Virus record (IMG/VR): IMGVR_UViG_3300047469_000094
Reading direction: 5' to 3' (one strand)
Origin: a virus
Taxonomy: Duplodnaviria > Heunggongvirae > Uroviricota > Caudoviricetes
Length of the DNA stretch: 64,000 nucleotides
Part shown: positions 54,008 through 58,750 of the stretch, piece by piece
Position numbering within the stretch: position 1 is the first letter of the stretch
How the letters are laid out: each line of letters opens with the position of its first letter
Program-made: the position numbers and the translations under genes
Notes under the pieces: model-generated
The model's input: the letters and a program-made list of their open reading frames with translations, nothing else
The model's database searches: none
What the model was told of the DNA's origin: nothing

Positions 54008-54021
54008 GTTAAAATATTACC

Positions 54022-54171
54022 GTCTAATAGAAACATTCCTGCCGTACTTTACCGCGAGAGGTAGAGGCGGGGTCTGACCCTAATTGGGGTCTTAGGGTTT
54101 TCCAGAGGGAATTCCGCCACGAAACAAACAGGTCTTAACCACTTCAACCCGTCTAGTACGGGTTTTCTTTT
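54022..54171 (+). ncRNA. candidate structured ncRNA 2
   Basis: Perfect late motif GTTAAAAT at 54008; no ATG; several stems; terminator AACCCGT-CTAGT-ACGGGTT-TTCTTTT. Confidence 0.55.
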
Positions 54172-56859: not shown

Positions 56860-57074
56860 TAGCGTACAACCTCTAGTTTCATTACATAATACTTATACCA
56901 ATTTAGAGACCTCATCTGGGCTAAAACGAGGCCCCCGGCTTTCGCCGAGGAATCCTCAAAACGGGTGTAGTCTTTATTGGTGTTGAGGCACAGTGTTTTC
57001 TTTGATCGAATCTTGAGAAGCCCATAGCTTACTGTTCATGTTCAGATTCCAAACAGTTTGCGTTGTACAGCGTT

Positions 57075-58079
57075 TTACCCAGGCTGGTGTTGGTAAGGAG
57101 TTGATCGGTTGATCACTTCCCAATCCGTGCATGCCCCTTGGAATCGTTCGATGAGTTTCGAAGACCCTTCAGGGTTTAGCTGTCCAAACCAGTTGAGCTT
57201 GCCACGAACTCTCATTAAGAATTCGTTTGCGGTGAGACCGGTCTTAGACGCTTCTGCTTCCAGACCATTTTTAACACTGTTGTGAACGACGGCTCTTAAC
57301 CGAAGACGCTCGTTCCGGAGGAGATTCACCTTCTCGTTCACAACGGTACCGCACACATACAAACGACTGCGTCGAGTACCTTTCTTCATTACTTTCGTCT
57401 TAGCCTTATTGACCCGGAAGCCAAAGCCGACGAGAACCCCAGACACGAACTCGATAGCTTCTTGGGCGTTGAAGTCTGCCTTCGAAGAAATCGTGATGTC
57501 ATCTGCGTAGATGGTAAGGGCCAGGCCCCTGTCTTCGCAGAACTTCTTTACCACAGGCCCGAAAGTCCTAGAGGCAACCACGTTGCTAATCTTTGGACTG
57601 GTCAATCCACCCTGCGGAACATTTGGCCCTAAGGTCATAAGCTCCGACAAGGTGCGGGCCGGAGACTCTCCGAAGCCGACGCTTTGCATCAAGTCTTTCA
57701 GAACGTTTTGCTTAATGCTCGGAAAGTAGTCCTTGATGTCAAGGCTTACAACTTGCAAGCTACCCTCATGCATCTTCGCCATGACCGGGATAGATTTGTC
57801 CCGTTCGAAAGCGTAAATGTAATCCGGGATCTCGAAGTACTTCTCTAGGACCTCCTTCAAGATTCGGAACTGCAACAAACGCATGAGATTGCTTGGGTTG
57901 TAAACGACCCTATAACCACCCTTCTTCGGAATCTTCAGAAGCTTGTAGTGATCGGATTTGTTCTTCGAAGCATACGTCAGCGTCGCTGAGCTCTGCACTC
58001 TGAGAAGTTTCGATAGTTCGCGGTTCGATTGAGGCATCGAGTTCTCCAAGGGTTGCTTCTGGCAATCCAAGGTGATCAA
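57075..58079 (-). CDS. retron-type reverse transcriptase
   Basis: Y..KIPKKGG.R.VYNP, MAKMH (NAxxH-like), VPQGGLTSPKISN, IYADDITIS, FRVNKAKT, VCG (VTG-like); start at TTG 58079 or ATG 58037, both with GGAG; frame open to 58187. Confidence 0.9.
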   Translation of the reverse strand: MITLDCQKQPLENSMPQSNRELSKLLRVQSSATLTYASKNKSDHYKLLKIPKKGGYRVVYNPSNLMRLLQFRILKEVLEKYFEIPDYIYAFERDKSIPVMAKMHEGSLQVVSLDIKDYFPSIKQNVLKDLMQSVGFGESPARTLSELMTLGPNVPQGGLTSPKISNVVASRTFGPVVKKFCEDRGLALTIYADDITISSKADFNAQEAIEFVSGVLVGFGFRVNKAKTKVMKKGTRRSRLYVCGTVVNEKVNLLRNERLRLRAVVHNSVKNGLEAEASKTGLTANEFLMRVRGKLNWFGQLNPEGSSKLIERFQGACTDWEVINRSTPYQHQPG

Positions 58080-58407
58080 GGTTCCCTCCAAGGAGGAGAG
58101 TTGCTTCCTCAATTGAGAGTCGTCGAACGGGTCTTGCGTCGATTCTTCGACGGTAGATGTCACGAGGGAAGACAGCATAGAAACCACTCCGAACAGATCC
58201 GATATTCTTCAAGTAGATAACGCCAAGGCGCACTACTCCTACATGCTTTTCAAGAGGAACGAACCCCGCGTTGTTAGGGGTCCCCGTGACCACTGCGTAT
58301 TTCTCGTAGTGGCCTGCCTCGGAGTTAAAACACATAAGACCCTTGTGAGGTCGAAGACATTTCAACGTATCCCGAGGTGAAGCGGTGGTGCTAGGGCGAA
58401 TCGCCAT
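57910..58407 (-). CDS. RT-associated hypothetical protein (overlaps the RT 5' end)
   Basis: AGGAGG RBS; 165 aa; acidic C-terminal tail encoded in the overlap. Confidence 0.7.
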   Translation of the reverse strand: MAIRPSTTASPRDTLKCLRPHKGLMCFNSEAGHYEKYAVVTGTPNNAGFVPLEKHVGVVRLGVIYLKNIGSVRSGFYAVFPRDIYRRRIDARPVRRLSIEEATLLLGGNLDHLGLPEATLGELDASIEPRTIETSQSAELSDADVCFEEQIRSLQASEDSEEGWL

Positions 58408-58428
58408 TAGAGAGCCTCCTAAGCTCGG

Positions 58429-58587
58429 TTAGATAAACCAGCCTTTGATTCGTTTCACAACATGTACAACTACCTTTCTCACCCCGCTAGATCTAGCCCA
58501 TACTTCCAAGGCCAGATGCTTGACAAGGGCGAGCAGTTGTTCAGAGGACATTGCGGAAAAATCAAAAGTGCCTGCGTTCATAGTCAT
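58429..58587 (-). CDS. small hypothetical protein, first gene of the RT operon
   Basis: Likely start MTMNAG; promoter at 58680. Confidence 0.55.
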   Translation of the reverse strand: MTMNAGTFDFSAMSSEQLLALVKHLALEVWARSSGVRKVVVHVVKRIKGWFI

Positions 58588-58750
58588 GTTTACCGTATTT
58601 AGTTTTTCTTTGAGGGTTGGGTTTGGTTTACAATTTCCTTGAGTGGGCTTCTCATCGTAAAACAAGGTGCTACACTTTAGTTATACCAAAACGGTTTGTT
58701 TTATTGACAGGCTAAAAGAAGCCCAGTTACGGGCCTCCAGTCCCTTACTT

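Follow-up and report, generated by a model that had tools for sequence, protein, structure and literature searches.

Retrons are bacterial anti-phage systems with a compact msr-msd RNA. In their geometry, the paired repeats a1 and a2 bring the priming G, located 3' of a1, beside the template, located 5' of a2, where the msd stem is found as well. Here, we analyse a retron-type reverse transcriptase (RT) and its operon in a stretch of 64,000 nucleotides (nt), in the following called the window, from an uncultured large phage (Caudoviricetes; IMG/VR record IMGVR_UViG_3300047469_000094). The two ends of the operon RNA pair in a co-evolving helix next to a hairpin, and we propose both, from their sequence, as a concrete candidate for an a1/a2 priming stem and its template.

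The closest described arrangements come from type VI retrons. Their hybrid RNA is closed by an a1/a2-like inverted repeat and contains a small toxic peptide gene, the translation of which is derepressed by the complementary DNA (cDNA) (bioRxiv 10.1101/2025.10.22.683967). For Retron-Sen3, a long-range IR1-IR2 pairing flanks the SP gene (bioRxiv 10.64898/2026.04.27.721009). Phage RT clades that share ancestry with bacterial retron RTs are reported in a global metagenome survey (hLife 2024, PMC13681634). A description of the RT operon itself was not found in the literature searched. No retron has been described in which the RNA is closed end-to-end around the genes and the RT would find its template in its own messenger RNA, as proposed here.

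Identity and conservation of the reverse transcriptase

The enzyme is a retron-clade RT with an intact active site. Its minus-strand open reading frame (ORF; 58187..57075) shows the motifs PVMAKMHEG, IYADDITIS and RLYVCGTVVNEKV, i.e., the hallmarks YADD, MAKMH (at the NAxxH position) and VCG (at the VTG position). Pfam RVT_1 is matched at 1.2e-19. Among the PADLOC models, RT_III-A is best (7.5e-61, 204 bits), Ec107-like is next (8e-55), and XIII, II-A and VI come thereafter; the best 25 of the 68 matches are all retron RTs, with RT_VI being the tenth. The NCBIfam model retron_St85 is found at 6e-48 and 163 bits, which is below its curated cut-off of 235, and the closest solved structures are without exception retron RTs (Ec86 at 3e-27, then Ec67, Ec83 and Kva2).

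Other RT classes were rejected. The group II RT model TIGR04416 reaches 2e-15 and 56.6 bits vs 163-204 bits for the retron models, and no intron RNA family matched in the scans of the window or of the operon region (a tRNA scan gave nothing either). With respect to DRT/UG/Abi enzymes, the sole NCBIfam match is a marginal one to Drt2 (6e-05 over 80 residues), while the best 25 PADLOC matches are all of retron type. A diversity-generating retroelement (DGR) would show direct repeats of the template/variable (TR/VR) kind; no such repeat with copies of about 100 nt exists within 7 kb of the RT, where the repeats present are four families of 30-42 nt with 70-74% identity that do not fit TR/VR. The DGR family is also absent among the RT's listed matches in Pfam, PADLOC (best 25 of 68), PHROGs and NCBIfam.

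Concerning its start, the arrangement GGAG-N8-ATG at 58178 is kept in the window and in the related loci L001 and L047, and the RTs of relatives comprise 340-380 amino acids (aa) with their own ribosome-binding site (RBS) inside the preceding gene, orfX. We thus place the start at 58178, such that the RT probably has 367 aa, whereas 320 aa from ATG 58037 are possible. The first 269 nt of the gene then overlap orfX (orf165), with the RT in the +1 frame. A programmed +1 frameshift that fuses orfX to the RT was set aside because the relatives' RTs have a GGAG RBS and an ATG of their own inside orfX.

At 90% clustering, the RT has 323 homologous matches. Across 26 aligned homologues, the catalytic and retron-specific motifs do not vary, YADD is kept in 59 of 62 distinct ones, and the gene adjoins the same late gene in nearly all relatives. 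Given YADD retention and this synteny, the RT is under long-term purifying selection. Close relatives are found on 31 IMG/VR contigs of 26-193 kb and about 50 metagenome contigs. In 185,579 species genomes, there is one small scrap in an uncultured metagenome-assembled genome (MAG), and all other matches are at most 32% identical. For RTs of cultured phages and plasmids, identity does not exceed 31%, the value of the nearest retron RT on a plasmid; a protein search of cultured relatives yields at most 29%, and megablast of the locus finds no cultured phage that matches at the DNA level.

These results agree in most respects with an earlier note made from the letters of the window, which had proposed an intact retron-type RT of ~320-335 aa on the basis of the YADD, MAKMH and VCG hallmarks. 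Family and intactness hold; the length has to be corrected to the probable 367 aa. Two of the observations it named as speaking against its reading were not made: profiles and structures place the RT with retrons and not with group II intron or DGR RTs, and its homologues are intact rather than pseudogenised. Its view of a retron-type RT in an early operon of its own in a lytic-type phage is likewise borne out.

A helix between leader and trailer of the operon RNA

The RT unit is a discrete minus-strand transcript of about 1.76 kb that leads from an early-class promoter to an intrinsic terminator (Table 1). As the earlier note had it, the RT is the third gene therein, preceded by a small ORF of 50 or 52 aa and an ORF of 165 aa (orfX), and the sequence directly upstream is protein coding with a strong RBS. 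Its further statement that a canonical adjacent msr-msd is missing is confirmed as well. That is, there is no contiguous msr-msd beside the RT or at the head of the operon: the upstream region is coding, the leader spans about 90 nt only, and Rfam gave nothing retron-like, neither for the whole window at gathering level nor in a permissive scan restricted to the operon region. The 370 nt upstream of the RT, i.e., the '165-aa ORF', are ruled out as msr-msd by their synonymous pattern relative to L001, by family-wide homology and by a confident protein fold. Where the earlier note considered the template simply unknown, we arrive at a different picture, since the operon RNA offers a candidate in its leader-trailer helix and the adjacent hairpin.

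Table 1. Features of the RT operon in transcript order; positions refer to the whole window
Feature	Position	Strand	Basis or remark
Early-class promoter motif TGGTATAA(C), then initiation box AGTGTAG	58681..58688	-	motif count and aligned copies
5' leader of the operon RNA, about 90 nt	58582..58680	-	longer than leaders of the other 11 units in the class
Leader arm (a1-like) TGAGAAGCCCA	58644..58654	-	exact reverse complement of 57014-57024
Small ORF, 50 aa (MNAGTFDF...VVKRIKGWFI)	58429..58581	-	coding-type substitutions vs L001; ATG 58587 gives 52 aa
orfX, 165 aa: beta-barrel, disordered linker, acidic C-terminal helix (ADVCFEEQIRSLQASEDSEEGW)	57910..58407	-	RBS AGGAGG, L001 comparison, hidden Markov model, AF2
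Retron-type RT, probably 367 aa from ATG 58178 (alternative ATG 58037, 320 aa)	57075..58178	-	profiles, motifs, RBS comparison
Hairpin just 5' of trailer arm, GC-ACTGTT...AACAGT-GC, 2-nt spacer	57027..57061	-	fold and covarying stems; at retron msd-stem position
Trailer arm (a2-like) TGGGCTTCTCA, 50 nt past RT stop codon	57014..57024	-	complementarity, conserved core
Second trailer hairpin CCTCAA...TTGAGG, between a2-like arm and terminator	56954..56988	-	fold
Intrinsic terminator: GC-rich hairpin and T-run/TTTTAGCC signature	56919..56951	-	hairpin 56951-56932, then TTTTAGCC 56926-56919

Within the window, the 11-nt arm sequence occurs in its two copies only, vs 0.02 expected, and co-folding of leader and trailer predicts the helix. 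Shuffled trailers attain a helix of 11 nt 2-3 times per 100-200. Both arms are embedded in conserved cores: the leader core TTGTTTT-N4-5-GAGAAGCCCA-TCAAGGA-GTTG is kept in the window, L001, L047, L048 and L054 with diverging flanks, and the trailer-arm core GGGCTTCTC is kept in L001 and L047 despite diverged flanks.

Relatives from many branches of the RT tree form a helix at a similar place from unrelated sequences, e.g., CTCCGGAAGCAG in L004, CTCGAAGAAGCAG in L016 and CTCGTAAAGCAG in L078, compared to TGAGAAGCCCA in the window. These three belong to one clade and represent compensatory changes, each with its own matching trailer. Further lineage-specific helices are formed by TCGTGAAACAG (L007), TTGTTTATGTACCT (L012), TCTCAGACCAGA (L015), AAAGAAGATTGG (L059) and CCTTGATGGGGTCA (L064). 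We listed the compensatory changes by hand; MAFFT placed the arms of helix and hairpin out of register.

For a quantitative assessment, we scored the helix by its exact Watson-Crick length, with unrestricted RNAduplex being uninformative and G-U-permitting scoring noisy. At least 11 contiguous Watson-Crick pairs are found for 11 of 46 cognate leader/trailer pairs but only for 15 of 2070 non-cognate ones (Fisher p 9e-13). The co-evolving helix has 11-14 bp, spans the whole operon and ends sharply with mismatched flanks, as is the case for a1/a2. The window has 11 further operons with this promoter class, and none of them shows a comparable leader-trailer pairing.

Hairpins next to the helix

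A covarying hairpin is located 2-5 nt 5' of the trailer arm in two distant clades. L001 (ACGTC/GACGT) and L047 (CCGACAC/GTGTCGG) show it at the same place as the window with other stems. In the distant clade (L004..L078, L007, L064), the analogous hairpin is found 4 nt 5' of the arm with the near-invariant loop CTRRGYAA and compensatory stem changes. Many relatives also have a strong hairpin just 3' of the trailer arm.

Beside these hairpins, we observed further possible contacts between the two RNA ends. In L004, L016, L020, L061 and L078, the leader reads TACCCTAC directly before the leader arm, and the loop of the trailer hairpin reads CTGGGTAA. Their invariant parts, TACCC immediately 5' of the arm and GGGTA in the loop, are complementary to each other, such that a pseudoknot-like third contact is possible. 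In L012 and L013, complementarity exists between the leader segment directly past the arm (CTCGGGCCG) and the loop of the next hairpin 3' of the trailer arm.

We also considered a terminator-bounded RNA from a late promoter (54008-54171, plus strand) as a template in trans. It was rejected: it lies on the opposite strand, is not retron-like, folds no better than shuffles (z -0.8) and shows no link to the RT operon.

Operon partners of the RT

At least 50 distinct contigs of uncultured large phages share the order of small helical peptide, orfX and RT, for which we compared 52 distinct viral and metagenome loci. The first slot encodes a peptide of 34-68 aa that is helical and mostly hydrophobic in 42 of these loci, and the orfX family is present at the same position in 51. 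Compared with L001, a locus 85% identical, most substitutions in the two upstream ORFs are of synonymous or conservative type, and because of this pattern we consider both to be real genes rather than an msr-msd. In addition, a hidden Markov model built from distant relatives matches orfX at 4e-22. The overlap between the 3' end of orfX and the beginning of the RT gene has a median length of 248 nt; nearly all relatives show it, always with the RT in the +1 frame. The upstream ORFs are conserved partners of the RT and not mere neighbours.

The AlphaFold (AF2) model of orfX has a mean predicted local distance difference test score of 80. It shows a beta-barrel for residues 10-115, followed by the disordered linker and the acidic C-terminal helix, which is encoded within the RT overlap. 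Foldseek finds no match for this fold, and the best VIA Z is 4.6. Neither the small ORF nor orfX matches Pfam, PHROG, PADLOC or NCBIfam, such that no effector of known class is found there; orfX has furthermore no match in phage records and no usable one in the protein atlas. Among 1.84 billion proteins, its family comprises 259 cluster representatives.

Four lineages that are basal in the RT tree (L023, L076, L087, L090) are without the small ORF, and the first three of them also without the orfX-RT overlap; the overlapping three-gene layout may thus be derived within the phage clade. A conserved stem-loop just 5' of the orfX start is found in most loci outside the window clade (e.g., L004:4615-4645, L007:4545-4575, L016:400-430). 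Its loop reads about (T)AG(T/A)AAC(T) and its stems covary, e.g., GTAGGTAG-AAA-CTACCTAC, GCGGTTAG-TAAC-TGACCGC and ACAGCTAG-TTAC-TGGCTGT. The window clade has no such stem-loop between small ORF and orfX and shows GAGC-TTAGGAG-GCTC over the orfX RBS instead. The stem-loop could be a translational operator or a protein-binding site.

Transcription unit and genomic setting

The RT unit forms a minus-strand island between plus-strand late genes. The phage encodes a helicase and a ribonucleotide reductase as well as parts of a multisubunit RNA polymerase of its own. The neighbours of the RT unit on both sides are single-gene units of the same promoter class, with the promoter of the next unit at 56900-56893. 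The promoter motif TGGTATAA occurs 12 times vs 1.07 expected, with each copy being on the minus strand; alignment of the copies in their context reveals the conserved initiation box downstream, and relatives carry the same motif upstream of the operon. The terminator signature TTTTAGCC is found nine times, again on the minus strand only, vs 1.8 expected.

In general, promoter and terminator signatures of the window are strictly strand-segregated: early-class promoters follow TGGTATAA-N4-(A/T)GTG(T/C)A and early-class terminators end in TTTTAGCC, while a distinct motif, GTTAAAAT, is located ahead of plus-strand late genes (7 of 8 copies on the plus strand).

Just upstream of the operon promoter, arrays of GGACA/TGTCC palindromes are present in L012, L013, L015, L016 and L022 and absent from the window; they may be operators or iterons. 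On the L016 contig, the array covers positions 1-150, with dispersed or inverted copies at ~72.6-73.1 kb and 131.0 kb. For 12 of the 34 viral loci, a contig end is found within about 0.1-0.4 kb upstream of the operon promoter, probably because the assembly broke at palindrome repeats. Of two contig ends inspected, that of L016 is a dispersed repeat, which does not prove a genome terminus, and that of L003 showed nothing.

A proposed inside-out retron and its alternatives

The geometry at the RT operon equals that of a retron except for three genes between the two halves, and type VI retrons provide a precedent for a closing repeat around a gene. For these two reasons we favour, if tentatively, a self-templated retron turned inside-out, in which the helix serves as a1/a2 and the genes separate an msr-like end from an msd-like one. 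The phage would thus own a retron derivative made of a single early transcript of ~1.76 kb (leader, peptide gene, orfX, RT, trailer). The 11-14-bp co-evolving helix of the RNA ends would function as the a1/a2 stem, with the part of the leader that follows it in the msr-like role. The trailer hairpin just 5' of the helix would be msd-like and provide the template start, and the three genes would occupy the normally short msr-msd junction. The RT, probably together with orfX, would bind the closed RNA and prime at the junction. A short cDNA would then be made from the trailer hairpin and perhaps also from some of the RT's own 3' coding end. If type VI hybrid RNAs are a guide, cDNA synthesis and template removal by RNase H could open the clamp and thereby alter translation or stability of the enclosed genes, above all of the small peptide. 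The end use might be competition with other phages, exclusion, counter-defence or self-timing; the earlier note had raised superinfection exclusion, a decoy and titration of a DNA-binding protein as roles it could have. In its complete form, the early mRNA in its entirety would act as retron RNA, the orfX-assisted RT would copy the 3' end of the message, and cDNA and RNase H would flip peptide expression, i.e., a lytic phage would have a self-templated switch for timing, exclusion of rivals or counter-defence; we regard this full chain as possible, but doubtful.

Several observations weigh against the inside-out retron. An exact helix of at least 11 nt is present in about a quarter of the loci; the remainder show helices of 8-10 nt or interrupted ones, none of which is significant by itself. 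A conserved G or AGC could be placed neither beside the leader arm nor beside the helix, and the G-U vs A-C counts at the helix flanks do not separate a helix of the sense RNA from a repeat at the DNA level. In some lineages the trailer arm follows the RT stop codon by 9-15 nt, such that the 'template' there would be coding sequence. The regions upstream and downstream of the RT fold no more stably than shuffles, and in the co-fold the leader of the window clade has little stable msr-like structure. The peptide of the window clade is less hydrophobic than the other versions, which weakens the analogy to a toxin. Finally, cDNA, branch point and RT-RNA contact are features that the model proposes.

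The strongest competitor, which we still rate as unlikely, is that the helix only clamps the mRNA, for end protection, stability, translation coupling or processing, and that the RT copies another phage or host RNA or works in trans. That no branch G or msr-like motif was found fits such a clamp, as do the RNA-family scans (window at gathering level, operon region permissive) without anything retron-like. It is furthermore in accordance with the clade L004-L078, where a strong RBS (AGGGAGAG) and a further small ORF (MDRINPH...) extend the operon beyond the trailer arm and precede the terminator (L004:6130-6160, L016:1915-1940, L020:2510-2540), so that the closing helix there is not at the 3' end of the RNA. 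Against a clamp, the helix is confined to the RT operon when the 12 units of one promoter class are compared, and it is kept together with a retron RT across deep divergence. Its 11-14 bp and sharp ends fit a1/a2 and are short for an RNase III site, and the covarying hairpin sits exactly at the position of a retron template stem. The same hairpin, conserved on the 5' side of the trailer arm, speaks against a circularly permuted retron, in which the trailer arm would be a1, the trailer hairpins and terminator the msr, and the 10-35 nt at the outermost 5' end of the transcript, before the leader arm, the template of a very short run-off cDNA. Strong hairpins are indeed common 2-15 nt past the trailer arm, an A-G or A-C-G often follows the arm, and with run-off the cDNA would stop at a defined place, the 5' end of the RNA. 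On the other hand, length and sequence of the stretch before the leader arm differ widely, and to our knowledge the resulting cDNA would be shorter than any known multicopy single-stranded DNA. We hold the permuted geometry to be improbable.

Still less probable are two further explanations. The RT could act without a dedicated structured template, either protein-primed or non-templated like AbiK/DRT-type enzymes, or serve as a scaffold for orfX and the peptide. This would suit the lack of a canonical ncRNA and the tight coupling of orfX to the RT by gene overlap, but the RT belongs to the retron clade and not to Abi/UG profiles, its catalytic residues are conserved, and the co-evolving RNA helix would be left unexplained. 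Least credible is that the phage has, as a moron, a bacterial retron defence cassette of the ordinary kind, of which the msr-msd was missed. While the strong retron RT profile matches agree with it, everything from promoter to RT is coding except for the ~90-nt leader, which is too short for an msr-msd, and no known effector domain is present. Moreover, close relatives are almost exclusively phage and metagenome contigs (species genomes contribute one MAG scrap, with the rest at most 32% identical), and the locus is syntenic and vertically inherited, with the nearest plasmid retron RT at 31% identity.

Irrespective of the mechanism, large lytic-type phages have kept a retron RT over long evolution in a fixed operon with two partners that match no known family in the libraries searched. 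If the helix is indeed a priming stem, the two halves of a retron RNA can be separated by over 1.6 kb of coding sequence. In that case, the messenger could be reverse-transcribed in cis, i.e., phages would use retron chemistry for their own ends, and the arrangement could offer a new scaffold for the production of single-stranded DNA in cells.

Comparison with known systems

The viral 'retron-like' clusters of the metagenome survey (PMC13681634) come without operon anatomy, RNA or mechanism. By sequence, the closest RTs are those of type III-A and the St85-Ec86 family (RT_III-A 204 bits, retron_St85 163 bits, Ec86 RT 3e-27), which share NAxxH-like, YADD and VTG-like motifs with the phage RT. 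Identity to them is at most ~31%, though, and the score of 163 compares to a cut-off of 235. Furthermore, in contrast to these systems, the phage operon lacks an adjacent msr-msd as well as any known effector such as PRTase or NDT.

The closest precedent in terms of architecture is type VI (Retron-Vpa2 and Retron-Sen3, i.e., hybrid RNA, SP toxin, helix-turn-helix (HTH) protein and RT). There, a canonical msr-msd is located upstream of the peptide gene and the RT gene lies outside the closed RNA, whereas the phage operon has no contiguous msr-msd and its helix encloses all three genes including the RT (about 1.6 kb). The type VI partner is an HTH protein; its phage counterpart orfX combines a beta-barrel and an acidic helix, and its gene shares sequence with that of the RT. 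A large phage of lytic type is the carrier here, and RT_VI is only the tenth-best PADLOC match. Thus, with the small peptide and closing helix present but HTH and canonical msr-msd absent, we do not assign the operon to type VI. Common to both are a retron RT, a small hydrophobic peptide gene within a structured RNA, and a long-range a1/a2-like closing repeat. A second small partner protein is found in both as well; that of type VI binds the RT, and in Vpa2 the cDNA controls translation of the peptide.

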